From Deltaproteobacteria bacterium (GTDB taxonomy: Bacteria > Myxococcota_A > Polyangia > HGW-17 > JAJRWW01), in NCBI GenBank assembly GCA_029938605.1, contig JAOZUO010000013.1, forward strand, positions 6,462-70,461: a stretch of DNA of 64,000 nucleotides, written 5' to 3'. Below the pieces are notes generated by a model that was not told where the DNA came from, made no database searches, and saw only the letters and a list, made by a program, of their open reading frames with translations. Of this stretch, positions 6,701-25,877 are shown in pieces; positions within the stretch are counted from its first letter, which is position 1, and every line of letters begins with the position of its first letter. A program made the translations under genes and the position numbers.

Positions 6701-7843
6701 TCAACGTCCGATCTTCCCAGAAAGATGCCGGCGAAGGATCTCCTGTACGAACCAGCGGGTCATGGCGCTGTGGGCGTCCAGGTCGTCGTCGCCAGGTGGG
6801 TTCCCAGACCCCGACTGGGCCTCTTGGGCCAACGGGCGGTGTCGCGCCTTGAAGAGCCACCACCCCCGATCATTGCCCAGGCAGGACTCGTAACGCGTGC
6901 GATCACACCGCACCACATCGCTGACCCCAAGGCCGCGGGCGAAGCCATCGAGGTCCCGATCGAGGGTCGCGTACCACGTCTGGGGCTCCACCCACATGGC
7001 GGCGACCCGGGTGGACGTTCCGGCGAGGGCATCCCGAAGGAAACGGCCCCCGCCGTAGCCGTGAAAGCAGATGTCCATGAGCCCCAGGGTGGTAACATGA
7101 ACCCCTTGGGTCCGAAGAGCTCTCACCCGCTCAGCCACATGGAACAGGCCGTTTCGCTTCCGGGACGTCACCACACAGCCGGCGCCGCTGTGGCCAAATA
7201 CGCTCACCTGCCGACGGTCCACACGCGCTGATCCCAGCACTGAAAGCTCCGCCTCCAGAACGGTCACGAAGTCTGCGAGATTGAAGCCGGCCGGGGTCCA
7301 CAGGGAGGGGCTCGCGTGCGCATCTCGAGTCTGACTGGGCGCGGCCACGATCACCGGCACGGCGACTCCCCGCTCCAGCGCGCTCTTGAACTCCAGGCTC
7401 AGATTCAGCGGCGGGGCAAGGAGCCGGTGGACCCCACCCGGCTTCGGCATAGAGTCGGTGCCGTGCAACAACACCACCAAGGGGTAGGGCCCACCCCGTT
7501 GTCGGGCGATCGCCGGGATCCACACCCGCCCGCCACCGGTTTGCGTCTCCAGCAGCAACTTCTCATCCCGGTATGAGAAGTCGACCACGCAGTCCCCCCG
7601 GACCGGACATCCCCGATCCAGCTTCGCTTCGGACCCCACCGGGTCACGGCCCAAGAGCCCATCGCCCACACCCGGTGCACGGGCTAGACGGGGCGACTCA
7701 AGGCGCACCCCCACATCCGGGACCGACGCCGCCGAAAACCACAGGAGCGCAACCATGCTGGCAGCCAACAGCACCAAACCAGTACCCAGCCAGTAACGGC
7801 CCGTCCAGAAATAAGTCCTCGTTTCCCGGAGGGGATCACGCAT
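6701..7843 (-). CDS. Membrane-anchored or secreted alpha/beta-hydrolase-like protein
   Basis: N-terminal hydrophobic helix, VVLLHG, nucleophile elbow VFGHSGAG, later Asp (LMD) and C-terminal His (DAHSAM). Confidence 0.6.
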   Translation of the reverse strand: MRDPLRETRTYFWTGRYWLGTGLVLLAASMVALLWFSAASVPDVGVRLESPRLARAPGVGDGLLGRDPVGSEAKLDRGCPVRGDCVVDFSYRDEKLLLETQTGGGRVWIPAIARQRGGPYPLVVLLHGTDSMPKPGGVHRLLAPPLNLSLEFKSALERGVAVPVIVAAPSQTRDAHASPSLWTPAGFNLADFVTVLEAELSVLGSARVDRRQVSVFGHSGAGCVVTSRKRNGLFHVAERVRALRTQGVHVTTLGLMDICFHGYGGGRFLRDALAGTSTRVAAMWVEPQTWYATLDRDLDGFARGLGVSDVVRCDRTRYESCLGNDRGWWLFKARHRPLAQEAQSGSGNPPGDDDLDAHSAMTRWFVQEILRRHLSGKIGR

Positions 7844-12288: not shown

Positions 12289-14358
12289 ATGCACCCGAAA
12301 ACGATCATCATGTTGACCATGGTCTGCCTGATCGGTTGGGCCGGTTGCAAAGAAGAGAAGCAGACCTGCCGAAGCGCGGCGAACCACTTCCTGCAGGTGC
12401 GTCCGGGGCTCGAGGTCGAGGGCGCGTCCATGCAGACCCCCGAGGCGCTCGCGGCCTACTGCGAAGAGACGCAAGCGTCGGCGGCTGTTATTGGCTGTAC
12501 TTTGCAACACGCAGCGTTCCAAACTTGTTTGGAGGGCGTGGAGCCCGCCATCGCCCCGGCATGGATCGACTTTTGCCAGTACGAGGTGGCGGCGCTGCAG
12601 GCCTGTCTGAGCGACACCCCATTCGAGTCCCTCTGTCACGACGGCCATAGTGACGACGATGACTCCCTCGTCGACTGCGCCGACGAGGACTGTGACGACT
12701 TCGAGACCTGCCAGCAGAGGTGGTCGCCCTGGAATTGGTATTTCCCGAACTCGTCCCGCAACGTGGACCTGCTGTTCGTCATCGACAACTCCGGATCCAT
12801 GGCCGGCGAGCAGGCCAACCTACGCGCGAGCTTCCCCGCGCTCATGGCGGAACTGAGAAACACGAACTCGGGCCTGCCCAACCTGCACATCGGCGTCACC
12901 ACCACCGATCTGGGCACGGGCATGTTCCAGATCACCTACTGCGAACAGGTGGGCGGCGAAGCCGGCAATCTGGTGACCGGAAGCTGCACCAACCCCTCCG
13001 GAGCACCGTACATTATCGACGTGGAGCCCGAGCCCTGCGAGATCACCAGGGAGCCGGACAACACCTGTACGTCCCACACCTGCACGCAGTCTGACTGCAT
13101 GCACGAGCTCGCCACGACCATCGTGGAAGACGCCACCACGGGCTGCCCGCGCTGCCGAAACTTCTCGGGCGAGACCCTGGAGGAGGTATTCTCCTGTATC
13201 GCCAGCCTGGGCACCATGGGCTGCACCTTCGAGCAGCCCCTGGAGGCCATGTACAAAGCTCTGGACTCCAGCAATTCGGCCAATACCGGGTTTGTGCGCG
13301 ATGCAGCAAACCTGGCAGTGATTCTGATCACCGACGAGGACGATTGCTCGGCCTCCGATCCCCAGCTTTTTGACAGCTCCCAGACTGACCTCGACTCCAC
13401 CCTGGGTCCGCTCTCGTCCTATCGCTGCTTCGAGTTTGGCGTCACCTGTGACATCAACTCCCGGACCCAACCGGGCGACCGACAAGACTGCGTGCCCCGG
13501 GAGGACGCCGAGGCTCTGCTGCATCCCATCAGCCGCTACTCCCAGTTCCTGAGATCCCTGAAATACCCCGAGCAACTTCTCCTCGCGGCCATCGCGGGCC
13601 CGGTCACCCCCAGTGACAGCGGCATCGGCCACAACGTGGTGGTGGATGAGGACCCCGAGAGCAACCCGCAGGTGCAATACAGCTGCTCCACGACGTCAGA
13701 CAGCGCGGTTCCCGCCATCCGGATCTTCAACCTCATCGCCGAACTCAACAGCGAGACCGACCTGGACGCCTGGGCCTACACCTCCATCTGCGCCGATGAC
13801 TACACGCCTTTTTTGGCGGGCGTCGGCGACAGGATCAGAAGCGGCCTCGACCAAAGTTGTCTCACCGTGCCGTTGGAGGGATGCGCCGATGTGGGCGTGG
13901 AGTTTGGCACCCCCCAGGCGTCTGTGACCTGCGCCATCAATGAGCGCTGTCTGGCCAATTGCCAGGTCGAGGACTTCTTCTGGCGTGGCACCGATGACGA
14001 AACACGGCAGGAAGTTCCCCCTTGTCTCGAGGTGATGTCCGATGGCTCCTTTGCCGCGGGCAACGTCGACCGGACCCTTGCCTACGCCTCCGGCCACCCC
14101 GCGCTCCGAGACACCGACCTACCGGTCTCCGCCTGCTGGCACATCATCTACAACGCCTACTGCTCCCGATCGAACTACGCGGAGCTGGTCATCTCCCGCC
14201 AGGAGAATCCGCCGCCCCGCTCCTTTGCCACCGTGGCCTGCTCCCTGATCTACCCTGACGAGCTCACCTGCGGCGACGGTCTGGACAATGACCAGGACTG
14301 CCTGGTGGACAGCGACGACCCCTGCTGCCAAGACGTCTCCACCTGCCACTGGAATTGA
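12289..14358 (+). CDS. VWA-domain lipoprotein, myxobacterial type
   Basis: Lipobox IGWAGC; MIDAS VDLLFVIDNSGSMAGEQANL; LHIGVTTTDLG; GCTFEQPLEA; LAVILITDEDDCS. Confidence 0.85.
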   Translation: MHPKTIIMLTMVCLIGWAGCKEEKQTCRSAANHFLQVRPGLEVEGASMQTPEALAAYCEETQASAAVIGCTLQHAAFQTCLEGVEPAIAPAWIDFCQYEVAALQACLSDTPFESLCHDGHSDDDDSLVDCADEDCDDFETCQQRWSPWNWYFPNSSRNVDLLFVIDNSGSMAGEQANLRASFPALMAELRNTNSGLPNLHIGVTTTDLGTGMFQITYCEQVGGEAGNLVTGSCTNPSGAPYIIDVEPEPCEITREPDNTCTSHTCTQSDCMHELATTIVEDATTGCPRCRNFSGETLEEVFSCIASLGTMGCTFEQPLEAMYKALDSSNSANTGFVRDAANLAVILITDEDDCSASDPQLFDSSQTDLDSTLGPLSSYRCFEFGVTCDINSRTQPGDRQDCVPREDAEALLHPISRYSQFLRSLKYPEQLLLAAIAGPVTPSDSGIGHNVVVDEDPESNPQVQYSCSTTSDSAVPAIRIFNLIAELNSETDLDAWAYTSICADDYTPFLAGVGDRIRSGLDQSCLTVPLEGCADVGVEFGTPQASVTCAINERCLANCQVEDFFWRGTDDETRQEVPPCLEVMSDGSFAAGNVDRTLAYASGHPALRDTDLPVSACWHIIYNAYCSRSNYAELVISRQENPPPRSFATVACSLIYPDELTCGDGLDNDQDCLVDSDDPCCQDVSTCHWN

Positions 14359-14436
14359 TCTCGCACGCTAGCGCTGGACATACTATGATGTGGTGGTGAG
14401 CGTAGTCTTAGACATTCTATAGCTTAGGAGCTGGAC

Positions 14437-15990
14437 ATGAGGCGCATATCTTTGGTGTTGGGGGTGGTTCTGGGGGTCGGCCTGGCGGGGTGTGGCGGGA
14501 TGGATTCCACCGCGCTGGGGGACTTGGAGAACTGCGTCAACGGGTCGGACGACAACGGGGATGGGCTGGCCGACTGCGAGGATCCGCAGTGCGTGGCTCA
14601 CGCGGCTTGTATCCCCATGCGGGAGATGAACTGCGCCAACGGGGTAGACGACGACGATGACGGCTTCATCGACTGCAGCGACCCCGACTGCCAGCAAAGC
14701 ATTGAATGTGGCGCGACCCGGGAGCTGAGCTGTCACGACGGTGTAGACAATGACTCAGACGGCTTCACCGACTGTGAGGACGACGACTGCGCCGAGGCCT
14801 GCACCGAAGTATGTAACGACGAAATCGACAACGACGGCGACCTCCTGGTGGACTGCTCCGACCCCGACTGTGCGGGGAAGGCGGGGTGTCCGGGGACCAC
14901 CGAAGTGTGCAGCAATGGAGTGGATGACGATGATGATGGCGACGTGGACTGCGAGGACTCCGACTGCGCCGGGCGGCCCATGTGTACGTCGGTGGAGCTC
15001 TGCAACACCGAGGCCGACGACGACAACGACGGGTTGGTCAACTGCGCCGATCCCGACTGCCTCCTGAGCCCCTACTGCAGGGAGGTCAACTGCTTGGACG
15101 GTCAAGACAACGACGGCGACCTCCAGGTGGACTGCGACGATCCGGACTGCCAGAACGCGCCGGAGTGTCAAGGGGGCACGCAGTGTCGACCGGCCACGCC
15201 CCTGCCCTGCGGCCAGTGGGTGGAGTCCACCACCGTGGGACGTCTGAACAACTTCAATGACTATGAGTGCCATCCCGACACCCTGAACGGCCCCGAGCGG
15301 TACTTCCAGTTTACCGCCGAGCGAGATCTATTCCTGGACCTGTATTTGGACGACTGGAACCTCAATGGACAGACCATGATCGCCAACAGCGGCGATCCCG
15401 TCACCGGTTGTGACCTCAACGGCGACTGCTACGCCGAAGACTACCCGGGGGATAACTTCCTCCTCCTGGAGATTAGCGAAGGCGAGACACTCTTTCTCAT
15501 TGTGGACGGCCCCGCGTCCACGCCCGGACCCTTTGACCTGGGGATGGAGTGCGTGCCCATGGACGAGGTGGGCCTGTGCGACGACGGCCAGAACAACGAC
15601 GAGTACTCGGACGGCCTCACGGACTGCTGGGACGACGACTGTCTGGGCGACCCGGTGTGTAACTACTGGGTGAGCGCCGGGATCTCCTGCACCGAGGCTT
15701 CAGAGTGCGCCCCGGGCGAGTTCTGTAGTGATGTATCTTTCCAGATGGCTGGGACCGAAGTCTCCTTCTGCACCCGCCACTGCTCTTCGGCGGGAGCGGT
15801 GGGCGGTGAGTGCCACACCGAATCCCTCGGCGACGGCGTCTGCAACGCCATCCAATCCAACGCTGGGCTCCGATGTGTGCTCCCCTGCTCCTCCGCCTTG
15901 GACCCATGCCCCTGGGGATCGGTCTGTACGGACATCATCTCAGGCAGCGAATCGACTCTGAACAGCGGCTACTGCCTACCGTACCAGTAG
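14437..15990 (+). CDS. Cys/Asp-rich repeat lipoprotein, paralog of 10703..12274
   Basis: Same layout and shared segments (DSTALGDxENCxNG, CHDGVDNDSDGxTDC, STVGRLxNF); lipobox GLAGC. Confidence 0.85.
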   Translation: MRRISLVLGVVLGVGLAGCGGMDSTALGDLENCVNGSDDNGDGLADCEDPQCVAHAACIPMREMNCANGVDDDDDGFIDCSDPDCQQSIECGATRELSCHDGVDNDSDGFTDCEDDDCAEACTEVCNDEIDNDGDLLVDCSDPDCAGKAGCPGTTEVCSNGVDDDDDGDVDCEDSDCAGRPMCTSVELCNTEADDDNDGLVNCADPDCLLSPYCREVNCLDGQDNDGDLQVDCDDPDCQNAPECQGGTQCRPATPLPCGQWVESTTVGRLNNFNDYECHPDTLNGPERYFQFTAERDLFLDLYLDDWNLNGQTMIANSGDPVTGCDLNGDCYAEDYPGDNFLLLEISEGETLFLIVDGPASTPGPFDLGMECVPMDEVGLCDDGQNNDEYSDGLTDCWDDDCLGDPVCNYWVSAGISCTEASECAPGEFCSDVSFQMAGTEVSFCTRHCSSAGAVGGECHTESLGDGVCNAIQSNAGLRCVLPCSSALDPCPWGSVCTDIISGSESTLNSGYCLPYQ

Positions 15991-16126: not shown

Positions 16127-18160
16127 ATGGCGAAGATCGACCAGGTAAGAAATATCGGAATTGTGGCGCACATCGACGCCGGCAAGACCACAGTCACCGA
16201 ACGGTTTCTGTACTACTCCGGTCGCAGCCACAAGATCGGCGAGGTCCACGACGGCGAGGCCCAGATGGACTGGATGCCCCAGGAGCAGGAGCGCGGCATC
16301 ACCATCACCGCCGCCGCTACGACCCTGAGCTGGAAAAAACACGACCTGCACCTCATCGACACGCCCGGCCACGTGGACTTCACCATCGAGGTGGAGCGCT
16401 CCTTGCGGGTGCTCGACGGCGCTGTAGTGGTCTTTTGCGGCCGGGGCGGAGTAGAGCCCCAGTCCGAGACCGTGTGGGCCCAGGCTGACAAGTTCCAGGT
16501 GCCGCGCATCGCCTTTGTGAATAAGCTCGACCGGGTGGGCGCCCAGTTCGACACCGTGGTGGCGGAGATCCGCGAGAGGCTCGGCGCGAACCCGATCCCC
16601 GTGCAGCTGCCCATTGGCGAGGAGGGCGACTTCGCTGGGGTAGTGGACCTCATCGAGCGCAAGGCCTACCAGTGGACCGGCAAAGAAGAGGACATCCAGA
16701 CCGAGGTGGACATCCCCGCCGACCTGGTCGAGGCCGTGGACGCCGGCCGGGAGCAGCTGCTCGAAGCCGCGGCCGACTTCGACGACGACCTCGCTGAGCG
16801 GTACCTCGAGGGCGAGGAGATCACCCCCAAGGAGCTCCGCGCCGCCCTGCGGGCAGGCACCCTGGCCAACCGATGCGTGCCGGTGCTCTGCGGAGCGGCC
16901 CTGCGCAACCGCGGTATCCAACCCCTGCTCGACGCCGTGGTGCATTTTTTGCCGTCGCCCGCGGAGGTTGCCGAGGTGGAGGCCTTCATCCCGGGCACCG
17001 ACGAACGGGTCCTACAACAGCCCAAGGACAACAATCCACTGTGCGCCCTGGCCTTCAAGGTGGCCATGGAGCAGGGCCGCAAGATGGTGTTCTTCCGGGT
17101 GTACGCCGGGCGCATCAAACCCGGGGATGTGCTGTTCAACCCGCGGGCGGGCACCAGGGACAAGATCTCCCGGGTGCTCAAGATGCACGCCAACAAGCGC
17201 GAGCGGATCCAGGCCGCCGTGGCCGGGGACATCGCCGTAGGCATGGGCCTCAAGTCCGTGGGCACCGGCGACACCCTCTGCCAGTTCGATCATCCGTTGC
17301 AGCTAGAAGCCATCGACAGCCACGAGACGGTCATCTCTGTGGCAGTGGAGCCCAAGAACCTGCCCGAGAAGGACAAGATGGACTTCGGCCTGGCCAAGAT
17401 GGTGGAGGAGGATCCCACCTTCAGCGTACGGGAAGACGCCGAGACCGGCCAGACCCTCATCTCGGGAATGGGTGAGCTGCACCTGGAGATCATGACCGAC
17501 CGCCTCAACCGGGAGTACGGCATCTCCGTGCGTGTGGGCAAGCCCCAGGTGGTCTACCGCGAGACCGTCAAGGAGACGGCCACCGAGGAGTACCGCTTCG
17601 AGCGCAAGCAGGAGGAGGAGCGGGTCTTTGGTCACGCGCGCATCACCGTGTCGCCCCAGCCCCGGGGGTCGGACAACGTGGCCTTGGCGGAAATCAAAGC
17701 CGATCCACCGCCGCCCTCCGCACTGGTGGAGGCGGCCCTGGAGGGCATCCGGGAGGCGTTCCGAAGCGGGCCCCAAGGTGGTTATCCCATCCGGGACGTC
17801 AAGGCGGTGGTGACGGGCCTGGAGGTGGTGGAGGGATCCTCGGCGGTGGTGCCCTACAAGATCGCCGCGCAGGAGGCCTTCCGCAAGGCCATGCGCGGCG
17901 CCACGGTGCAGCTGCTCGAGCCGGTCATGGAAGTGGAGGTCACCACGCCCGAGGAGTCCATGGGTGAGGTCATCGGCGACCTGAACCAGCGCGGCGGCCG
18001 CATCGAGTCTTCGGAGTTCCGGGGCAACAAGCGCGTCATCCAGGCCAAGGTGCCCCTCAAGCAGATGTTCGGCTACTCCACGTCTCTGCGCTCACTCACC
18101 AAGGGCCGCGCGGTGTTCTCCATGCGGTTCTACGAGTTCGACACCGCCTCGGGCGATTGA
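16127..18160 (+). CDS. fusA: Elongation factor G paralog (standalone, outside the str operon)
   Basis: [67 protein letters not shown]. Confidence 0.95.
18075..18160 (+). repeat. Direct repeat copy 1: last 86 bp of fusA
   Basis: actccacgtctctgcgc...gacaccgcctcgggcgattga; the first 76 nt are identical to 21515..21590. Confidence 0.95.
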
Positions 18161-18276
18161 CGTACCGTCCCAGGGCCAGGGCCAGGCGTGGTCCGAGCCG
18201 ATATCACCCAGCCGAACCTCGAGGCGTTGTTGCATGAATCGAACAGACAACGGACCGAATCCATGGTTGTTCGCCC

Positions 18277-18374
18277 TCACGCAGCAACCTTCACCGATTC
18301 CGGCATCCCCAGCTCGGTCATACGATTGAGCACGTTGACCGTGATCATCGCCTCCCTCAACTGAGCCTCGAAGC
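18277..18374 (-). pseudogene. Remnant C-terminus of IS903-like transposase with a 1-nt frameshift
   Basis: RFEAQLREAMITVNVLNRMTELG/MPESVKVAA* aligns with the recalled IS903 end DYDGQVAEAMALVRALNKMTKAGMPESVRIA*; one G is missing at the LG/MP junction. Confidence 0.8.
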
Positions 18375-18432
18375 GGCCACACGCCGGGCTTTCCCGCTGG
18401 TCTTCGCCAAATGCCCTCGGAAAGCAAAAATG

Positions 18433-19044
18433 CTAGCTGCGAGCCCTTCCCCGGCGGAGGGCCATGGCGGTGAGCACCAGCGCCGCCGCGCCCAGGCCGA
18501 CGACCGGGATCCTCAGATCCCCCAGGAAGCGCGCGTCGAGGGTTCCCAGCCCGGCGCAGCCGCGGGCCACGCACTGTGCCACCACCGAGCCCCCGATGGT
18601 GGCGACCAGGGCGACGCCGAGCCAGGTAGCCAGCGCCAACACACCCCGTCGCGCCGCGACGAAGGTGGCGGACCAGATGCACAGGGTGAGCAGAGCCCCG
18701 GTGAGCGCCAACCAGACGTCAGTCGCGCCGTACACGAGTCGGCCGGTGCCCAGGCCGGCGCCCCAAAGGACCAGCCCGGCGGCCTGCGGCAGCAGCAGCG
18801 CACGGGTAACCGGGACCCCTGCTGGAGAGGCGCCGAGGGTGGAAGAGAACCGCTCGCGCCTCAGGGCGTCGGCCACGAGCACGGTCAGCAACGCCCAGAG
18901 CGGCGTGAGGGGAAGCCCGCGATTGGGGGCGTGGGCCATGTACCCCGCCGTACACAGCGCCAGGACAGGCACCGCCTGCACCAGGACACGCCAGCCCAGG
19001 CTGCTCACCGGGTGGCGGTCACTCTGTGCGTGTGTGCTCATCAC
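18433..19044 (-). CDS. Hypothetical multi-pass membrane protein (possible immunity protein)
   Basis: About 6 hydrophobic segments; the start overlaps the stop of the upstream lipoprotein (ATGA, 19041-19044). Confidence 0.6.
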   Translation of the reverse strand: MMSTHAQSDRHPVSSLGWRVLVQAVPVLALCTAGYMAHAPNRGLPLTPLWALLTVLVADALRRERFSSTLGASPAGVPVTRALLLPQAAGLVLWGAGLGTGRLVYGATDVWLALTGALLTLCIWSATFVAARRGVLALATWLGVALVATIGGSVVAQCVARGCAGLGTLDARFLGDLRIPVVGLGAAALVLTAMALRRGRARS

Positions 19045-21266
19045 GGGGGACAGTTGATGAAGCAGGTGATCCGGCAGGGATCACAGTACCAGTCCATGAA
19101 CCAGGCGATAAGCTTGACAATGAAATAGCCAAACATGATGGCCGCGCCAAAATAGACCGCCGTCACCAGTACCGCCACCACAAGCGGCGTTGTGGCGGAA
19201 AGCATGAGCATGGCGGCCAGCGCCCCGGCGAAGGTGATCCCCGCGCCAAGGTTGCCGATGAGGATGCCTTCGAGCTGATTCCAGTCCCCGTGCTTGACCA
19301 GCGCGCCGTCCAGCGAGGTGAGCTCCATCGACGGTGGGGGCTCCTCGCCGCGCAAGATGCGAGCCGCGCGGCCGGGGTTGTCCAGGATCCACGTCCGCAG
19401 CGGAGTCATGTCGGTGCCAGTGTCCACCTCGTATTGGTCCAGCCGGGCAACAATGGCCTGATCGCTGTAGTCCACGCTCAGGGTCTCGGTGGTCACCGAG
19501 CCCCCCACATCCGCGATGATCTCCACGGTCTGGGAATCCGTCGACCATACGAGGGTCGTAACGTCCCAATCCCCTGGGCCCTCCATCTGTACGGGGCGGT
19601 ACCGCTCGTCGAATGCGACACGGTAGACGTCGCCGTTGGCCAGAACGACGTGCATGCCGGACAGGCGGTCCTGATCTCGTTTCAGGGTCACCGAGTTGCC
19701 CGAGGCGGAGTCGTGAATGTAGGCGAGCTCGCTCTTGAACGGATCCGGCGAGGCGACCACGACGTCCACTGGAGGATCCGCCGCTTCCTGCATGGTGCCA
19801 AAGGGAACGAGCGAAAAAGAGTACTCGCCCTTCTCCCAGGTACCGTGTAGGTACCAGCTGTTGGCCAAGAGCTGTCCGCGCCAGGGGGAGGTCTGTCCCG
19901 GAGCCGCCTCGTCCCACCAGAAGCCCAAATACTGGTACCCGTTCCAGGTAGCCTCCACCCGATAGGTCGCGCCGTCGCTAGAGTGGTCGGTGATCTCCAA
20001 ACGACTTCCGTCTTGCACAATGACCGCGGACCCCAGGATGGGCTCCGGAATCCCGGATGGAGCATCGAACCAGTCCGCCGACAGGCTCGAGGCGTCACCC
20101 GTGAGCCACCCGGCGGGGGGCTCCACGGTGCGTTGCAGGGAGTGGTAGTATTCCTCCCAGCCATCGTAGCGACCCACGATGCGGGTATTGGACGAAGCCA
20201 TGTAGCCATGCCAGTTCGAAGAAACAGAGCCCCCCTGGCTCGTGTCGATGAAGCTCGTGCCATCCACTGTCTCGGGGCGAATGGAGCGGGTCAGCAGGCT
20301 GTCCAGGAAGGCCTCGTCCCGATGGTGCACGTACAGCACTTGCTCGTGTTGCACCACCACAGCGGCGTACCACTGCGGCAGATCCTGCTGATAGGTCTGA
20401 AAGCGTTCCAGCCACAGGCCGTTGAGCGGCGATGGCTGGGGCGCCGCCTCAAGGACCTCACACTGCTCGATATCCAGGGCCCATTCGTACCGGCAGACAT
20501 ACATGCGCTGCCCCTGCTGGAAGGATAAGGCGGTGAGCCCCGTACCCTGAATTCTCGGATCATCCGCCGAGTCCACGGTGCCGCTGTATCGACCGTCCTC
20601 GGGCCAGCCCCCGTCCGGGTCCAGGATGCTCAACAACGCCTGATTGCCGCTCCAACCGAAGTCCAGGGCAAGCAGGGCCGTGAGATCGCCATCGGCGGTG
20701 TGCCAGACACCAACCTGCTGTTGTCCGAAATGAACCACGCGGTGCAGCTGCAACATTTGACCATCGGCGAAGGTACCAGAGAGCAGAGCGACCGAGGTAT
20801 CCGCCTGCGCGAAGGTCACTGTCTGTGTTGAGCTCGCTCCCACGCTGTCACGCCACTGACCCACCAGCGCTCCATCTGCCCCCCTAGCCAACGTGAGCGA
20901 CGGCTGCCGGCCGTCGGCCAGCGTCACCGCCAACTGCGCCTCGTCCCCTGCGACGTCGGTGACCATCTCCCCAGAGCCCCAGCGGAGGTCCTGGGCCAGA
21001 TCCGCCCGCGCCACGACCCACCAGCCATCTAGCGGCACTAAGGCCACGAGCGGGTGGTCGGGATCACACACGTCGCCGATCCCGTCGCCATCCACATCCG
21101 CCTGATCGCCGTTAGACCGCGCCGGACAGTTGTCCTCACTGTCCGGAACGCCGTCGCCGTCCCCATCCGTTACGCTCCCATGGGTTCCCGACGGACACCC
21201 GGCAGCTGCCATCGAAAAGCCCAGCAGCATCCCCAGCGCCTTGCGCTTCGTATAGCTGTAACTCAT
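19041..21266 (-). CDS. Lipoprotein with thrombospondin type-3 Ca-binding repeat, Trp-rich beta modules and hydrophobic C-terminal helices
   Basis: ATG at 21266 with GAGGGAG RBS; lipobox AAAGC; DGDGDGVPDSEDNCP..NGDQADVDGDGIGDVCD; long hydrophobic C-terminal stretch, then Cys-rich end. Confidence 0.8.
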   Translation of the reverse strand: MSYSYTKRKALGMLLGFSMAAAGCPSGTHGSVTDGDGDGVPDSEDNCPARSNGDQADVDGDGIGDVCDPDHPLVALVPLDGWWVVARADLAQDLRWGSGEMVTDVAGDEAQLAVTLADGRQPSLTLARGADGALVGQWRDSVGASSTQTVTFAQADTSVALLSGTFADGQMLQLHRVVHFGQQQVGVWHTADGDLTALLALDFGWSGNQALLSILDPDGGWPEDGRYSGTVDSADDPRIQGTGLTALSFQQGQRMYVCRYEWALDIEQCEVLEAAPQPSPLNGLWLERFQTYQQDLPQWYAAVVVQHEQVLYVHHRDEAFLDSLLTRSIRPETVDGTSFIDTSQGGSVSSNWHGYMASSNTRIVGRYDGWEEYYHSLQRTVEPPAGWLTGDASSLSADWFDAPSGIPEPILGSAVIVQDGSRLEITDHSSDGATYRVEATWNGYQYLGFWWDEAAPGQTSPWRGQLLANSWYLHGTWEKGEYSFSLVPFGTMQEAADPPVDVVVASPDPFKSELAYIHDSASGNSVTLKRDQDRLSGMHVVLANGDVYRVAFDERYRPVQMEGPGDWDVTTLVWSTDSQTVEIIADVGGSVTTETLSVDYSDQAIVARLDQYEVDTGTDMTPLRTWILDNPGRAARILRGEEPPPSMELTSLDGALVKHGDWNQLEGILIGNLGAGITFAGALAAMLMLSATTPLVVAVLVTAVYFGAAIMFGYFIVKLIAWFMDWYCDPCRITCFINCPP

Positions 21267-21351
21267 GACGTCGCACTCCCTCGTGTGAGCAAACCAATGT
21301 CTGCGATTCCAATACTTTGTGTAAATGAACCCAGCACCCAAAGCCACCGCA

Positions 21352-21379
21352 ATCTTACCCAGCCGTGCGAGGGGGTCAA
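21352..21379 (-). promoter_or_regulatory. Sigma70-type promoter inside the cassette driving the lipoprotein gene
   Basis: On the minus strand TTGACC-16 nt-TAAGAT. Confidence 0.6.
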
Positions 21380-21514
21380 GCCGTTGGGTGCCCCATACCA
21401 GGCAGGCCCATCAGGCGGATCACCGATGCTCATCGGTCATCGGTCAACGAAATGCAGGATCGCCGGGATACGGCGACGACTTCAAACTGAACGAGGTCGC
21501 CGTGCACCAACGCC

Positions 21515-21600
21515 ACTCCACGTCTCTGCGCTCACTCACCAAGGGCCGCGCGGTGTTCTCCATGCGGTTCTACGAGTTCGACACCGCCTCCGGCGATTAG
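21515..21600 (+). repeat. Direct repeat copy 2 of fusA 3-prime end (TAG stop)
   Basis: Differs from copy 1 only at 21591 (C vs G) and the stop codon (TAG vs TGA); offset 3440 bp. Confidence 0.95.
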
Positions 21601-22945
21601 CCAGCAGCAAGATCAGCACCAGGATCAGCACCAGCGCCCGCCCGGACGCGCTCGACGGCCCAGACGTGCCACATGCGCAGCCCCGTGGATCGGCGCCGTT
21701 CTCCGGACCCCCATCCGGGCCCAGACCCCCGTCCTCATCTACGCCCGCATCACTCGAGACGCCGGTAACCACCACGGTCCAAGAGCGCTCCGAGGCGAGA
21801 GCGTGGTCGGGATCGTTGCGCACCCAGGTCCCGTCGTCGGTGACCTCACAGCGCAGGTCGTGGGTCCCGTTTTCCGGGCCGACCATGGCCAAATCCAGCG
21901 TCAGCGCCGTTCCGGAGCCCACCTCCTGGTCCCCCAGCCACCAGGTCACCGTCTGGCCCGCGTCGCCCCCAAGCGCCACCGTGGCCACTTCGAATGGCAC
22001 CGGATACGTGGCCGGAGCTCCCCGGTCCAGGGTCACCGGAGACTCGGGCGGCGAGACAGTGTCGATGGGATCCACCCGGTCGTACACCGACAGCACCAGC
22101 GCTTCGGCGCACACGGCGCAGTAGTCGTATTCCAAGCTGCCCATCATGCAGTGGGGCGCCGGGCGATAGATTCCGGTCTCCAGGTACCGTGCGCCCTCAT
22201 AAGCCCCTACGGGCAGATAGTCAGTCACCGCGTCCGACAGCAGGGTGGGCAGCGGCGTGGTGGGCTCCACCCAGGCGTTCCACTTGAGCTGGTCGAAGGC
22301 AAAATCGAAGTCCACATTGGGCTCGTTGTCCCCCGGCGTAAATCCCGGCAAGGGGTCGGTGTACTCGTCGGCCAGGCCGGCGAAGCTGTGGCCGAGCTCA
22401 TGGATAAGGATCCCCACCGCCACATCCGTTGCGCTCACCGTGGCCACGGATCCGCCGCTGCCACCGTAGAGCGTGTCATTGACAAGGACCACCACCAGGT
22501 CCACCTCCGGCAGCAGATCCGCCGCGACGCTGATGGCGAGAGCTTCGTTGACCACCAGCAGCCGCTCCACGCCCAGGTAGTCGTAGGTGGCGTCTAAGTA
22601 GGTGTCCACGTACAGCCCCGCCGAAGGGTGGTCAGCCCCCGACTCCACCGACTCGGTGACGATGCGGTAGAGGTTGAAGGCCCCCCGATAGGAGGCCCAG
22701 GGCTCGGTCGCCAATAGCCCGCCCAGCAGGTTGTCCACGTGGTTCCGAAACGCTTCCCCTTCCGCGGCCCGGTACCCCTCACCGATGACGACCAGATCGA
22801 TACGATTGTCCGCCGGGCCGGTGTTCTCCACCGTCTCAAGGGTGTTGACGGCCCGGGCGGAGGCGGGGTCCACCCACTCCCACACCCCGAACACGCCCAG
22901 AACGACGACCACACCGACGACCAACACAGTGCCCAGCCGGGTCAC
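21536..22945 (-). CDS. Peptidase M64 (IgA peptidase-like) zinc metalloprotease with MYXO-CTERM-like tail
   Basis: RIDLVVIGEGY, YGGSGG, HELGHSFAGLADEY, GAYEGA, IYRP..CMM; tail GCACG..ALVLILVLILLLANRRRR. GTG start at 22945 overlaps the upstream TGA. Confidence 0.88.
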   Translation of the reverse strand: MTRLGTVLVVGVVVVLGVFGVWEWVDPASARAVNTLETVENTGPADNRIDLVVIGEGYRAAEGEAFRNHVDNLLGGLLATEPWASYRGAFNLYRIVTESVESGADHPSAGLYVDTYLDATYDYLGVERLLVVNEALAISVAADLLPEVDLVVVLVNDTLYGGSGGSVATVSATDVAVGILIHELGHSFAGLADEYTDPLPGFTPGDNEPNVDFDFAFDQLKWNAWVEPTTPLPTLLSDAVTDYLPVGAYEGARYLETGIYRPAPHCMMGSLEYDYCAVCAEALVLSVYDRVDPIDTVSPPESPVTLDRGAPATYPVPFEVATVALGGDAGQTVTWWLGDQEVGSGTALTLDLAMVGPENGTHDLRCEVTDDGTWVRNDPDHALASERSWTVVVTGVSSDAGVDEDGGLGPDGGPENGADPRGCACGTSGPSSASGRALVLILVLILLLANRRRRCRTRRTAWRTPRGPW

Positions 22946-23463
22946 AGCGCCACCTCCCCCAACACCACCTCCCCCAGTCGGCGACGCCCGAAATCGTCGT
23001 ACAGGACCACGGTCCGCGCCCCCGGGGCCACAGCGATGCGCAGCCACACCACCGGTCGCTCCAGCTCCACGTCCACCGCCCGGGCCGGACCGCCCACTTC
23101 AGCGAACAGCGCGTGACGGCGCCTGGGAATTCGAAAACGCCCCTCGCCCAGCACCCAGCCATCGGGGCTTCGCACCTGCCAGCGCCCCCTCCAATGCCGA
23201 GGGGCGCGACGCAGCTCGCGGACCGCGCGGGGCGAGCGAGGCAACGCACGACTGAGTAAGACCTCAACGCCGTCTCCCAGACGAACCACGAGCAACCGCC
23301 CGGCCACCCGCTCCGGAGCCGTCGCCCGAGCGCGCACCTCCCGAATCGGGTCGTCAGACGGATCATCGCAGCCAGTACAGGCAGCGACCAGCACCAGCAC
23401 CAGCACCAGCACCAGCACCAGAAAAGTGGAGCCAACAAGACCCCACGGCAAATCGCGTCTCAT
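22942..23463 (-). CDS. Hypothetical lipoprotein translationally coupled to the M64 peptidase
   Basis: MRRDLPWGLVGSTF(LV)nAACTGC signal peptide; GTGA overlap with the M64 start. Confidence 0.6.
   Translation of the reverse strand: MRRDLPWGLVGSTFLVLVLVLVLVLVAACTGCDDPSDDPIREVRARATAPERVAGRLLVVRLGDGVEVLLSRALPRSPRAVRELRRAPRHWRGRWQVRSPDGWVLGEGRFRIPRRRHALFAEVGGPARAVDVELERPVVWLRIAVAPGARTVVLYDDFGRRRLGEVVLGEVAL
23387..23421. repeat. (ACCAGC)n hexamer repeat encoding a Leu-Val run in a signal peptide
   Basis: About 6 in-frame units. Confidence 0.8.
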
Positions 23464-23470
23464 GAAGACA

Positions 23471-23752
23471 CTACGGTTTGCAGACCTTACAGGGCACATA
23501 GCCGGCCTTGATCGCATCAGCCCTCGTTCTGAAAATGGCTGTGCACTTCTTGCAGTTGTAGTACCGGCACGACGGCTCGTGGAACTTCTTGGATTTGACG
23601 TTGCCGCGGTAGATCGTGCTGCTGGCTGTCGTACCGATTCCCATCCACAGGATGACCGCAAGGGCCATGATCGCGGTTACCAGGAGAGGCCGTTTGGGTC
23701 TGTCCAAAATGATGAAATTCTCCGTCTCAGTTGTGTCCGTAGGAAACACCAT
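23471..23752 (-). CDS. Small protein with TM/signal helix and Ada-type Zn-binding domain
   Basis: YRGNVKSKKFHEPSC..C..C..F.T.ADAIKAGYVPCKVCKP. Confidence 0.8.
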   Translation of the reverse strand: MVFPTDTTETENFIILDRPKRPLLVTAIMALAVILWMGIGTTASSTIYRGNVKSKKFHEPSCRYYNCKKCTAIFRTRADAIKAGYVPCKVCKP

Positions 23753-23775
23753 GCTGAATTTCGGACATTTGGCTA

Positions 23776-23804
23776 ATTATGGTGGAGGGCGATTAGGGGG
23801 TCAA
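23776..23804 (-). promoter_or_regulatory. Sigma70-type promoter for the Ada-Zn gene
   Basis: Minus strand TTGACC-17 nt-CATAAT. Confidence 0.65.
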
Positions 23805-23882
23805 GCGTGGACGCAGAAGTGCCGTCGTCGGAGTCGCGACGGGAGTCGTTTAGGATGCGCGCTAGGGGGTTGGTCGCCGAGG

Positions 23883-25664
23883 CTACTGGCAGGTGAAGCG
23901 GAGGGTCCAGTAGGTGAACGTTCCCACGTCATAGGCGGCGTGGTCCGAGACGTTTATGGACCAGGTGCCGTTGGGGCCGTCGGCGAGCAGGGCGGCGTCC
24001 ACGGGGACGTTCAGCAGGTCGAGGTTGTCAGCGCTGGCCCCCTCGCGGTCGTGCAGGGTCTGGGTGTCGCCGCTGGGGCTGGTGAGGATCACCACCAGGT
24101 CACCGCGGTAGGTGTGATCCACGTGCAGGTCCACGGTCACCGCCAGGGTACAGGAGGGGATGGAAGAGGCGGTGATATCGCTCTGGATGCCCGTGAGGTC
24201 GTCGTCGGGGATGTCGTACTTCTGGAGGTTGGTGAGCTCGGTGGGGAACTGCGTCGTCTGCCAGGCACACATGTTGCTGTCGCAGGCCCACTGGCCGGGC
24301 ACGGCGATGTGGATCAAGTCGGCGCAGTCCGCCGCCACCGTGGCGGGCGAGCACCAGAACTCGTCCTGACAGGTGCCCTCTCCAATGGGGGAGAGCTCCT
24401 TACAAAAGAGGCCCGCGTCGCAAAGTCGGGAGGCGCCATCACAGACATCGCCCACGTCTCCGCCGTCGCCGACGTCGGTGGCCTCGCAGTGGCCGTAGCA
24501 CGACGCAAAGGGGCTGAAGCAGCGGTGCGGGAGACAGTACTGCTCGGCCCCACAGTCCGCGTCTGTATTACAGGCGCCCACGGGGAGCTGCTCGTAGAAG
24601 CTCACCTTGGCGACCTGCCAGCCCCAATCCGTGATGGAGTAGTCGCTGCGGAAGTTGATGTGGATGGTGTTACCCTCAAAGATCGGGCTCCATTCGTTGA
24701 CGTGGTGGCCGTCGAGCATCACCGCGTTCTCCTGGACGTCTCCTGAGAGCACCAGTGGGTCGTAGCCGGCCTCGGTGTCGATGCGGCTGAACAGCACCTT
24801 GATCTGCGTGGCGCCGGCGCCGCCCACCACGTCCACGGTCTCATCGGTGTTGTTCAGGTAGGGGTGCACGCTGCCGACATCAAGAACCAGGAGTGTGGTC
24901 CAGGACCAGACCCCCTGGCCCTGGGGCTCGGTCACACAGGTGCCCGGCGTGGTGGAGGTCGGACCCTGACAGATCAACCCGTCGTAGCAAATCAACGCGG
25001 TACCGCCATCGCAGGGCTCCCCGTACAGGGCGATGCCTTCGAGCAAGTGGCAGGCGCTGTCCCAGGTAATGAGCGGATCGGGGGCACTGGTGTACCAGCC
25101 CTCGCTGCGAGAGCTGATGGCGCCACAGACGGGCGTGTCTTTTGAGTCGCAGCGCTCGAGCTTGATGAGCTGCTCTGTGTCGCCCCAGTACCAGCCCTCC
25201 TGGGGCGTACCAACGAAGCCGCAGTAGGGGCGATGGTCCATGGGGTGCCCGGGGTCGGTGGTCTCGATGCGGTACTCCGAGATCCGGAAGCCCCAGTCCC
25301 GGATGGAGTAGTCGGACACGAACTCGATGCGCATGTACCTGCCGTGTACCTCGAAGAGCTCGCCCGTGTGGTTGCCCGATAGGTGGTGAACCAGGGTGCC
25401 GTCGATGTCGTAGATGTTCACGAAGTCGAAGTCCTCTTCGGTCTCGAACCGATCAAAGACCACGCCTATGCTCAGCGCCCGCACGGGCGAATCGATCTCC
25501 CACTGCTGATTGGTGTGGTTCGCATAGGGATGCGCCGTCTGGATGTCCACCGCCGTGGTCACCACCACTTCCTTCATGATAGGTTTGGTCTCCGAGCCGA
25601 TCGCACACCCAGCCCCGATCCCGATCAACACCGTAAAAAACGCCATCGTCGTACGCATGCTCAT
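23883..25664 (-). CDS. Lipoprotein with two CUB-like domains, Cys-rich linkers and C-terminal proprotein-convertase P domain
   Basis: Lipobox GAGC; HPYANHT..FDRFETE..FDFV..FVSDYSI and a second similar unit; HTYRGDLVVILTSPSG..NGTWSINVSD..YDVGTFTYWTLRF. Confidence 0.8.
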   Translation of the reverse strand: MSMRTTMAFFTVLIGIGAGCAIGSETKPIMKEVVVTTAVDIQTAHPYANHTNQQWEIDSPVRALSIGVVFDRFETEEDFDFVNIYDIDGTLVHHLSGNHTGELFEVHGRYMRIEFVSDYSIRDWGFRISEYRIETTDPGHPMDHRPYCGFVGTPQEGWYWGDTEQLIKLERCDSKDTPVCGAISSRSEGWYTSAPDPLITWDSACHLLEGIALYGEPCDGGTALICYDGLICQGPTSTTPGTCVTEPQGQGVWSWTTLLVLDVGSVHPYLNNTDETVDVVGGAGATQIKVLFSRIDTEAGYDPLVLSGDVQENAVMLDGHHVNEWSPIFEGNTIHINFRSDYSITDWGWQVAKVSFYEQLPVGACNTDADCGAEQYCLPHRCFSPFASCYGHCEATDVGDGGDVGDVCDGASRLCDAGLFCKELSPIGEGTCQDEFWCSPATVAADCADLIHIAVPGQWACDSNMCAWQTTQFPTELTNLQKYDIPDDDLTGIQSDITASSIPSCTLAVTVDLHVDHTYRGDLVVILTSPSGDTQTLHDREGASADNLDLLNVPVDAALLADGPNGTWSINVSDHAAYDVGTFTYWTLRFTCQ

Positions 25665-25877
25665 CTCCCATTTCTCCTAACCATCTGGCACATCTGAAAC
25701 AGTGGACCTTCAAGGTCGTCAATTGTGGTTGCGTGTCTTACCTTGTGCGCCATGTAGGTTTTCTGGTTATGGACCGCGTAGATCCGAAAGTCAACAGGTA
25801 AGCGCACCGGTGCATCTTTTCCGAGCAGACGCGCGAATTGACCATTTATTTTAGGATGTTAACCGAGAGATGCAGCG

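Follow-up and report, generated by a model that had tools for sequence, protein, structure and literature searches.

Positions 18223-21514 of the window, as we call the whole 64,000-nt stretch of DNA that was analysed, descend from one insertion sequence of the IS903 group (IS5 family) in an uncultured myxobacterium and are non-autonomous. Their structure is that of a mobile insertion cassette (MIC), whose mobility as a unit is putative. Elements of this kind are known already; irregular recombination has placed this one, and no new mobility system is involved. The insert of about 3.3 kb lies between two convergent genes, EF-G and M64, with a duplicated 84-113-bp piece of the EF-G/M64 overlap on either side, and owing to this duplication both genes remain complete. 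Both IS termini are kept in the correct relative orientation, and both IS remnants read on the minus strand. About 100 nt of IS DNA are left at the right and 150-210 nt at the left, and the central transposase gene is replaced by a 2963-bp module. We observed directly this anatomy, the authenticity of both termini, a foreign flank, two tail alleles and the empty site in a relative (Table 1).

Table 1. Features of the cassette and its host locus (positions in the window).
Feature	Position	Strand	Basis or remark
EF-G (fusA), complete, 677 aa, outside str operon context	16127..18160	+	Pfam GTP_EFTU, EFG_III, EFG_IV, EFG_C
T1, first copy of the 84-nt EF-G 3' end	18075..18158	+	repeat finder gives 18072-18158
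29-nt remnant of the "A-type" M64 MYXO-CTERM tail	18159..18187	-	X2 contig; supplies the EF-G TGA stop
Z, 35-37-nt fragment of an unrelated gene, the former IS insertion site	18186..18222	+	contigs in X1, X3, X4, X7
IS903-group right end: IRR GGCGTTGTTGCATGAATCG and the last ~33-44 transposase codons	18223..18372	-	alignment to intact relatives
Cargo module, 2963 bp, two genes and upstream region	18433..21395	-	same module in run X3
Cargo gene 2, 203-aa polytopic membrane protein	18433..19044	-	no family match
Cargo gene 1, 741-aa predicted lipoprotein	19041..21266	-	Pfam, NCBIfam, AlphaFold model
Sigma-70-like promoter match, TTGACC-16-TAAGAT	21379-21352	-	consensus match only; 1 found vs 0.4 expected
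IS903-group left end: IRL GGCGTTGGTGCACGGC and 5' leader up to the destroyed transposase start codon	21414..21514	-	alignment to intact relatives
T2, second copy of the EF-G 3' end, with native TAG stop and downstream junction	21515..21598	+	repeat comparison
M64 (IgA-peptidase-like) metalloprotease with "B-type" MYXO-CTERM tail (21599-21668)	21536..23047	-	Pfam PF09471, 2e-48

On the minus strand, 21499-21514 reads GGCGTTGGTGCACGGC, and these 16 bases are all identical to the left inverted repeat of four intact elements (L127, L133, L145 and L148). The match ending at 21514 is thus a valid IS end in related elements, the very point that a preliminary description of this DNA had set beforehand as able to overturn its reading. 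That description had seen here a 12-nt inverted repeat bordering the second fusA copy. The terminus stood, with EF-G beginning at 21515; the extent did not, as the IS DNA covers 21414-21514 and aligns to IS nt 1-100 of element L088. In addition, 21398-21429 may be a further scrap from inside the IS (IS nt 353-386). A contig of an IS relative in run X3 matches 21448-21514 and ends exactly at 21514; EF-G homology follows, so that IRL is joined flush to EF-G codon 650. Over both strands of the window (128,000 positions) the terminal 16-mer occurs once. By itself a 12-mer inverted-repeat match would prove little; the window has five more 11/12 matches, and these are not IS ends. The two termini differ from one another by a single G/T mismatch, as is typical of the family: 11 of the 16 intact relatives of the same subgroup share the window's G at IRL position 8 and T at IRR position 8.

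At the left, the terminus GGCGTTGTTGCATGAATCGAAC at 18223 agrees in 19 of 22 positions with the IS903-type repeat GGCTTTGTTGAATAAATCGAAC of a Raoultella plasmid copy. The minus-strand reading next to it, which ends in EAQLREAMITVNVLNRMTELGMPESVKVAA and a stop, has 58% identity to the C-terminal 31 residues of annotated IS5-family transposases and 44% identity over 61 residues to an intact metagenomic relative. The IS903-like repeat and transposase C-terminus described earlier for this end were thereby confirmed. The frameshift attributed to the remnant was not, since the last ~44 codons are in frame and the in-frame stop sits further upstream. At the nucleotide level the remnant aligns to IS nt 967-1117 of L088 at 79% and to L085 at 89%; protein-level likeness beyond 18372 is weaker and reaches about 18430. 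Contigs with an uninterrupted Z lose their match exactly at 18222|18223, which confirms the left terminus from outside. A pseudo-repeat at 18185 (GGCGTGGTCC) was considered as a surrogate end of a larger transposition unit and rejected: it matches the inverted repeat in 8 of 12 positions and has no fitting 9-bp duplication. A search of viral contigs with the transposase remnant and the inverted repeat gave nothing.

IS5-family elements of the IS903 group have IS903-like terminal inverted repeats of about 16-18 bp with GGC at the start, as are present here, and a single DDE transposase of about 300-350 aa. Of the transposase gene, the last ~44-60 codons and a leader with a destroyed start are left. 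The element is therefore a derivative and not an IS. It has the inverted termini of a known IS with passenger genes between them and no transposase gene, which makes it a MIC in form; the earlier view of a transposase-less, IS903-group-ended cassette with two foreign genes and its own promoter-like site was borne out. Using tblastn with an intact relative as query, we found no further IS903-type transposase in the 64 kb. The insert holds the two cargo ORFs only, neither with a recombinase domain, and no recombinase or integrase gene or fragment. Its base composition (62-73% GC) is not distinct from the flanks, which are alike. Intact IS relatives are 1.07-1.13 kb long, and two of them (L115 and L135) carry 9/9 target duplications; among the 27 metagenomic IS copies spanning both ends, a target duplication was absent in 25. 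A 9-bp target duplication was not found at the flanks of the cassette (GAACCTCGA and ACTCCACGT), in agreement with the preliminary description, and every cassette-holding sample (X1, X2 and X5) has the same IRL|EF-G junction. As a single insertion site has been seen, it is unproven that the cassette moves as a unit.

The cargo is a discrete unit, judging from its occurrence elsewhere. In run X3 the same module is present at about 97% identity, without IS ends and with other flanks. The flanks diverge from the window exactly at 18433 and 21395, and IS homology begins directly outside these positions. A 62%-identical homologue in locus L081 is followed by a homologous downstream gene in an unrelated context, and the homologue in L082 also has a gene following. 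The two cargo genes are co-oriented, and the start of gene 2 overlaps the stop of gene 1 (ATGA). The product of gene 1 combines thrombospondin type-3 repeats with a large beta-rich body; it also has two TM helices at the C-terminus and a tail of the form CDPCxxxCFxNC. Searches of the cargo against Pfam and NCBIfam returned the thrombospondin type-3 repeats and nothing else. The AlphaFold model of this protein (pLDDT 71) has no meaningful PDB neighbour, with TM values up to 0.15 and generic beta-rich matches (Rhs, teneurin, propellers). The domain searches and the structure comparison thus give no support to a toxin/immunity reading. In an exact-protein look-up of a cargo protein the sole match was the unitig of the source sample itself, and look-ups of EF-G and M64 gave no record.

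EF-G scores 846 bits against NCBIfam TIGR00484 (cut-off 659), and M64 reaches 21 bits against the MYXO-CTERM model TIGR03901 (cut-off 20). The last 21 codons of M64 run antisense through T2. In the nearest relative (L003, EF-G 86% identical) EF-G and M64 abut, so that the site is empty with synteny conserved, and the cargo is not native to the site, as supposed before. The native junction, in which the EF-G stop abuts the end of M64, occurs in both L003 and L002, and a second copy of the EF-G tail was found in none of the 80 related EF-G loci. The direct repeat in the window comprises 18072-18158 and 21512-21598 (87 nt, 85/87 identical). Its EF-G-derived part is 84 nt (83/84 identical), and the second copy of this part starts at 21515, with 21512-21514 belonging to the IS terminus. 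The sole difference between T1 and T2 is G at 18151 versus C at 21591; the A-type contig of X2 has G. In run X1 the T sequence forms a 76-nt unitig of doubled depth (46 versus about 22). An extension of the EF-G homology upstream of T2 was considered and rejected; the frame is open there, and its residues are unrelated to EF-G.

The two copies of the repeat are followed by different sequences. T1 is followed by the A-type tail of M64, and T2 by the B-type. A 549-nt X2 contig contains T, then the A-type sequence (28/29), then 53 bases, then the M64 body at 21669, and its A-type tail translates into an in-frame GCxCG, a TM segment and an Arg-rich tail. The linker that joins the IS ends in the preliminary description, given there as about 148 bp of fusA tail plus downstream DNA, is no dedicated module of that kind. 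It is pieced together from 84-87 nt of the EF-G tail, 29 nt of an A-type M64 tail and 35 nt from an unrelated gene. The last fragment, Z, overlaps the A-tail remnant by a 2-nt GC. Contigs in X1, X3, X4 and X7 match 18186/18190-18222 alone, with 3-4 mismatches, and have other DNA on both sides (...CTCGTC, then Z, then TCCAATTCTGGATCTCGG...). One frame of Z, ...ILDLGSGA, may recall a methyltransferase motif. Because the linker carries Z, from a gene once interrupted by the IS, the IS ends are not the ends of the incoming DNA on the left side. Because its two copies are linked to different M64 tail alleles, the fusA-tail repeat has been touched by homologous recombination.

Neither ordinary two-ended transposition nor an integrase placed the cassette. 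Three routes fit, namely a one-ended IS joint, a circle and one-sided homologous recombination, and the unitig data cannot separate them. We infer the order and nature of the events as follows. The cassette, derived from an IS903-group element, would have arrived by an aberrant one-ended IS event, with host repair and a later tail swap, and we give this account about an even chance of being correct. IRL alone is flush with the target, in EF-G codon 650, and this is the signature of an IS-end-specific joint of transposase type. The IRR side entered with 35 nt of its previous flank and is joined to the 29th base of the M64 tail, where the 2-nt microhomology at the M64 tail/Z joint is the signature of host illegitimate joining. 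Completion by host repair would have duplicated 113 bp of the target. A simple target duplication does not account for the different tail alleles of the two copies unless an allelic exchange came after it: inter-strain homologous recombination may then have changed the hypervariable M64 tail of the right copy from A-type to B-type. We know of no one-ended joining for IS903-group elements specifically. IS copies without target duplications, and an IS between two copies of a new duplication, are documented (PMC11708052), as are insertions with long target duplications (PMC2853133).

A 113-bp target duplication in an A-type strain predicts that the cassette-IRL-T sequence of X2 leads into a complete A tail and M64. 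In X2 the cassette-IRL-T unitig (depth 6.26) does feed a unitig with T, the complete A tail and M64 (depth 6.3). This linkage, a k=31 unitig adjacency with matching depth in a run of patchy coverage and not reads across the 84-nt repeat, suggests that an A/A form of the repeat exists. The same X2 node also has a second exit, into a C-type tail. The X2 strain shows mosaic divergence from the window, 0.6 to 4%, which makes the A/B allele exchange plausible. In detail it is about 6% in M64 at 21669-22073, 1.4% at 22248-22603 and 2.4-4.3% in EF-G, a noisy profile that is among the 8 pieces listed too coarse to place a recombination tract. The MAG assembly is the basis for phasing the two repeat copies in the window; the Logan unitigs alone also allow an empty site plus a 3.44-kb circle. 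Runs X5-X9 added neither empty-site nor circle evidence.

Such a circle is the basis of a rival account. It would contain the cassette, the 84-nt EF-G tail, the 29-nt A-type tail and the 35-nt Z, and would come from an A-type strain whose EF-G tail already adjoined the IS end. A single RecA crossover of Campbell type in the 84-nt EF-G tail would have inserted it into a B-type chromosome, regenerating both genes. This would directly explain the A-type tail after T1, the B-type tail after T2 and the single G/C difference between them. The precursor it requires, cassette-IRL-T-complete A tail-M64, is the linkage suggested in X2, and the 2-nt microhomology between the 29-nt A tail and Z is as expected of an illegitimate loop-out. 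However, at least three prior events are needed (joining of the IS to EF-G, replacement of the other flank by Z, the loop-out), followed by transfer of a non-replicating circle and a crossover in just 84 bp. Unitigs cannot give circle-specific evidence, the linker is an accidental patchwork and no conserved module, and a second instance is absent among the 80 related EF-G loci. We regard the circle as rather improbable. Of the integration through fusA homology proposed in the preliminary description, the part played by homologous recombination at the repeat stands, and the circle becomes one of three fitting routes. A stronger version, which we think unlikely, is that the 3.44-kb unit of cassette and 151-bp linker is a homology-armed element free of recombinase, which would loop out as a circle and enter related chromosomes again by RecA crossover in its portable 84-nt copy of the EF-G tail, a highly conserved sequence. 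Each landing would then be at one and the same site, with the two convergent genes rebuilt, and a dead IS would have gained a second, non-disruptive way of spreading between strains. More generally, the circle route would mean recombinase-free, homology-guided spread of cassettes.

It is unlikely that the cassette came by homology-facilitated illegitimate recombination from a linear donor, Z-cassette-T-B tail-M64(B), with homology on the M64 side and an illegitimate joint at 18187|18188. The donor strain would have had its EF-G truncated by the IS, the recipient would have been A-type, and the repeat would be an incidental leftover of the broken donor EF-G. One joint with 2-nt microhomology and one homologous side are the described pattern (PMC3240628; PMC5361080), and both alleles would be explained in one step. 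The divergence of about 6% at 21669-22073 against 1.4% at 22248-22603 is compatible with an imported tract ending inside M64, but EF-G itself varies within the same noisy profile. This process is known mainly from species with natural transformation; it also requires a donor without most of this EF-G gene and a further exchange for the X2 linkage to the complete A tail. Mis-phasing of the MAG contig across the 84-nt repeat or across strains, so that the integrated arrangement is not one molecule, we consider very unlikely. There are indeed two ways through the repeat node in the k=31 unitigs (adjacent depths 26.6, 27.4, 21.9 and 15.4), and the many both-end-spanning IS copies without target duplication indicate that such contigs are often unreliable or rearranged. 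But the alternative path needs a 3.44-kb circle that has no replication gene and yet is at chromosomal depth, the depth of EF-G (26.6) matches the A29-Z unitig (27.4) and not the M64 unitig, all four junctions are present as unitigs in independent samples (X1, X2, X4 and X5), and the repeat is shorter than an ordinary read. A decayed genomic island of integrase type, with an attP mimicking the EF-G 3' end and an integrase later lost by IS-mediated deletion, is hardly credible. Direct repeats of a gene 3' end do flank foreign DNA, the gene is restored, and an IS remnant sits at the position expected of the integrase; against this, neither a recombinase gene nor a fragment of one is present, the right boundary of the repeat coincides exactly with an IS terminus, T1 leads into another allele of the chromosomal M64 tail and not into element DNA, and none of the 80 loci has a second tail copy.

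Returning to the derivation from an IS, this is a well-documented natural case of an IS that has become a carrier of genes. It comes from Myxococcota, where descriptions of mobile elements are scarce. It is unusual in that its termini are authenticated from outside, on one side by the uninterrupted old target and on the other by intact relatives. IS-end chemistry and host recombination together can set foreign genes between overlapping convergent genes with neither broken, and such events can leave, as a by-product, a repeat that looks "att-like". It is a single instance, and several ordinary routes can explain the placement of the cassette. Nobusato et al. reportedly described an insertion with long target duplication in 2000. 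Like the long-target-duplication insertions of Furuta et al. 2010 (PMC2853133), our cassette lacks a recombinase and lies between direct repeats of about 100 bp, of which the empty site of a relative (L003) has one copy; in contrast to them, one boundary is an exact IS terminus and the repeats are non-identical beyond their EF-G part. In the cases of Ngan et al. 2024 (PMC11708052), too, IS-bearing DNA separates duplicated target copies without a short target duplication, and host break repair was proposed for such cases. Here, however, the duplication is just 84-113 bp, the IS is defective and carries cargo, and the downstream alleles differ. With homology-facilitated illegitimate recombination (PMC3240628) the locus would share a single homologous contact to a resident gene plus one joint by microhomology, and with Campbell-type integration it would share the addition of foreign DNA through one crossover of a circle; the difference from both is that here the end product alone is known, neither donor fragment nor circle having been observed.

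Among MICs, MIC231 of Bacillus cereus (Chen et al. 1999) is cited in PMC6542083, and Tn3-derived MICs are known in Xanthomonas (PMC4337579). They resemble our element in having IS or transposon ends, passenger genes between and no transposase, with mobility presumed via a transposase in trans. Our cassette differs in its IS903-group origin, its myxococcal host, the scraps of transposase gene at both ends and the lack of a target duplication or of a second copy found. It shares with IS903 and the IS5 family the 19/22 terminal repeat and a transposase C-terminus with the ...NRMTxxGMPESV... motif, but lacks the catalytic part of the transposase, and its flanks come from two different genes. In the composite transposon Tn903 the cargo lies between two IS copies, whereas here it lies inside one IS. 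The cassette may still be mobilisable in trans. The source sample has IS-related unitigs of similar depth, namely contigs of 2899 nt (depth 19.3) and 840 nt (depth 21.6).

The window is part of the genome of an uncultured member of Myxococcota. Its EF-G and M64 genes are separated by a 3.35-kb insert. In L003, the closest relative, nothing separates these genes, their stop codons overlap, and synteny is kept on both sides. Therefore, the insert is a gain in the lineage of the window. Over 63 nt, the reading frame of M64 passes antisense through the EF-G gene end, and therefore the two convergent genes overlap. Two more gains relative to L003 lie near the locus, which is a variable region. The nearest EF-G among the public-genome relatives shares 86% amino-acid identity, and all those retrieved are Myxococcota or Polyangia MAGs. 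The source sample (run X1, Logan record SRR21545381) is a hydrothermal-vent metagenome; DNA near-identical to the window is also held in cold-seep and marine runs.

Features of the EF-G/M64 locus (window positions)
Feature	Position	Strand	Description
Gain upstream of EF-G	12289-15990		two large ORFs without family matches
EF-G gene, complete	16127-18160	+	faces M64 gene
Direct repeat, first copy	18072-18158
A-type M64 tail remnant	18159-18187		first 29 nt of another tail allele
Z fragment	18186/8-18222		piece of an unrelated gene
Cassette	18223-21514	-	IRR end at 18223, IRL end at 21514
IS remnant	18372-18223	-	aligns to L088 IS nt 967-1117
Cargo module	18433-21395		discrete, between IS remnants
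Cargo product 1			741-aa predicted lipoprotein: lipobox, thrombospondin type-3 repeats, large beta-rich body, two C-terminal membrane helices, conserved Cys-rich tail
Cargo product 2			203-aa polytopic membrane protein; start overlaps stop of first gene
IS remnant	21514-21414	-	aligns to L088 IS nt 1-100
Direct repeat, second copy	21512-21598
M64 metalloprotease gene	21536-23047	-	MYXO-CTERM sorting tail; convergent with EF-G
Gain downstream of M64	about 23200-25870
CUB and proprotein-convertase-P-domain protein	23883-25664	-	in the downstream gain

The left end of the cassette, GGCGTTGTTGCATGAATCGAAC, shares 19 of 22 positions with the repeat of an IS903-type element from a Raoultella plasmid. 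Beside it, the minus strand encodes a peptide ending in EAQLREAMITVNVLNRMTELGMPESVKVAA and a stop codon; annotated IS5-family transposases have a matching C-terminus, and so do intact metagenomic relatives. These matches bear out the preliminary description, which had seen here an IS903-like repeat and a transposase C-terminus. A search of metagenomes in which the transposase remnant was the query gave 69 loci, 27 of them with an element of 1.05-1.14 kb and both repeats. The 11/12 match by which the right end had been proposed is weak alone, because the window has five further 11/12 matches, none of them an IS end. It turned out that the left repeat of L127, L133, L145 and L148 is GGCGTTGGTGCACGGC, identical in 16 of 16 bases to window 21514-21499, where this 16-mer has its single occurrence in the window. 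The right end is thus a valid IS end in relatives, namely the left inverted repeat (IRL) of a parent IS whose right inverted repeat (IRR) is GGCGTTGTTGCATG. The mismatch that the preliminary description had between the two ends recurs in relatives: position 8 is G in the left repeat and T in the right one in 11 of the 16 that belong to this subgroup. A set of IS903-like elements (L086, L087, L092, L094, L098, L119, L129, L139, L145, L148 and L153) has a fixed end asymmetry, IRL GGCGTTGGTGCA versus IRR GGCGTTGTTGCA, which could be a mark of functionally distinct ends.

In the best intact relative, L088, the alignment from the IRL reaches the transposase start codon, which is destroyed in the window. 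The minus strand carries both IS remnants, arranged as they would be in one element. In contigs with an uninterrupted left flank the match ends at 18222; in an IS relative from run X3 it ends at 21514, with EF-G homology from 21515. Both termini are thereby fixed to the base from outside. With up to one mismatch, the 12-mer GGCGTTGTTGCA occurs six times in the window against 0.36 expected from shuffles. This excess is probably codon or oligonucleotide bias, since the sites at 7464, 36254, 36699 and 39817, among others, show no further similarity to the IS end.

The cassette is a mobile insertion cassette (MIC) in form, with IS ends, passenger genes and no transposase, and we file it under this already known kind of element. 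Having lost the catalytic gene, it no longer counts as an IS. Known MICs include MIC231, cited in PMC6542083, and the Tn3-derived MICs (PMC4337579). The cassette shares their structure but not the marks of mobility: neither a target duplication nor a second site was found for it.

The DNA between the first repeat copy and the IS end is not simple downstream DNA, as had been supposed, but an M64 tail allele followed by an unrelated gene fragment. A 549-nt contig of the cold-seep run X2 carries the EF-G tail, then the sequence of the tail remnant (28/29), 53 further bases and the M64 body; its A-type tail translates in frame as GCxCG-TM-Arg. The window's own M64 tail (B-type) differs from it. 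Further tail types occur in runs X2/X3 and X7, therefore the M64 membrane anchor is hypervariable. Closely related strains show no fewer than four tail types at this anchor (21536-21668; X2, X3 and X7 contigs), each behind a near-identical EF-G tail. Uninterrupted copies of the gene from which the Z fragment derives are found in X1, X3, X4 and X7, and the fragment marks where the IS was formerly inserted. Its junction with the tail remnant has only "GC" in common. The flanks of the cassette differ: IRR adjoins this former target, and IRL adjoins EF-G codon 650. A 9-bp target duplication was sought at these flanks and not found, as the preliminary description had stated. Among the 27 IS903-group copies with both repeats on one contig (L085-L153), only two (L115 and L135) have the expected duplication; either assembly over a multi-copy IS often yields chimeras, or these communities contain many rearranged IS copies.

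The direct repeat proved real, with 85 of 87 positions identical and a source-run unitig at twice the depth of its neighbours; mis-assembly keeps a small weight. Each repeat copy is joined to a different allele, and therefore recombination between diverged strains acted at the repeat. The incoming DNA reached 35 nt past IRR, so IRR was not an active end in this event, and the flush IRL joint points to IS-end-specific chemistry or breakage there. Three routes fit these facts. We tentatively favour a one-ended IS joint, at rather less than an even chance, within a general statement that we hold to be evenly balanced. Here host repair would finish the event and duplicate 113 bp of target (the 84-nt EF-G end plus the tail remnant), and the M64 tail would later be swapped for another allele. 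This route is the most economical in events, provided that the X2 linkage (cassette, IRL and EF-G end, then a complete A-type tail) is right. Its precedents are IS-associated duplications in which no target duplication was made (PMC11708052), and insertions that duplicated a long piece of target (PMC2853133).

The circle proposed earlier, integrating by a crossover within the 84 bp of EF-G homology, is unlikely, and a linear fragment entering by one-sided homologous recombination (PMC3240628) is less likely still. The probabilities stay split among these routes, because k=31 unitigs are too short to phase an 84-nt repeat. As a class, an integrase island was rejected, since a search of the insert showed no encoded recombinase gene; a decayed one carries little weight. 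The observation in the preliminary description stands. The pairing that it proposed, IS-end mobilisation together with homology-guided insertion, may be right but is unproven. The "homology module" looks accidental, not designed.

Run X3 holds the same cargo module at about 97% identity, and its flanks diverge exactly at the two module boundaries, directly outside which IS-derived sequence starts in the window. The edges are sharp: one is the stop codon of the second cargo gene, and the other lies 16 nt upstream of a single sigma-70-like site, which is a consensus match only. In X3 the module stands in a context without IS ends, and its identity is 96-100% across vent, seep and marine samples; the two-gene module may itself be a relocating unit. 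The gene pair is also kept in an unrelated context at 62% identity. Domain searches of the cargo recognised only calcium-binding repeats, and a structural model of fair confidence gave no meaningful neighbour. Members of the cargo lipoprotein family have two membrane helices and then, at the very C-terminus, a conserved CDPCxLxCFxNC motif (window 19041-19130), an unusual Cys-rich tail predicted to be cytoplasmic or periplasmic.
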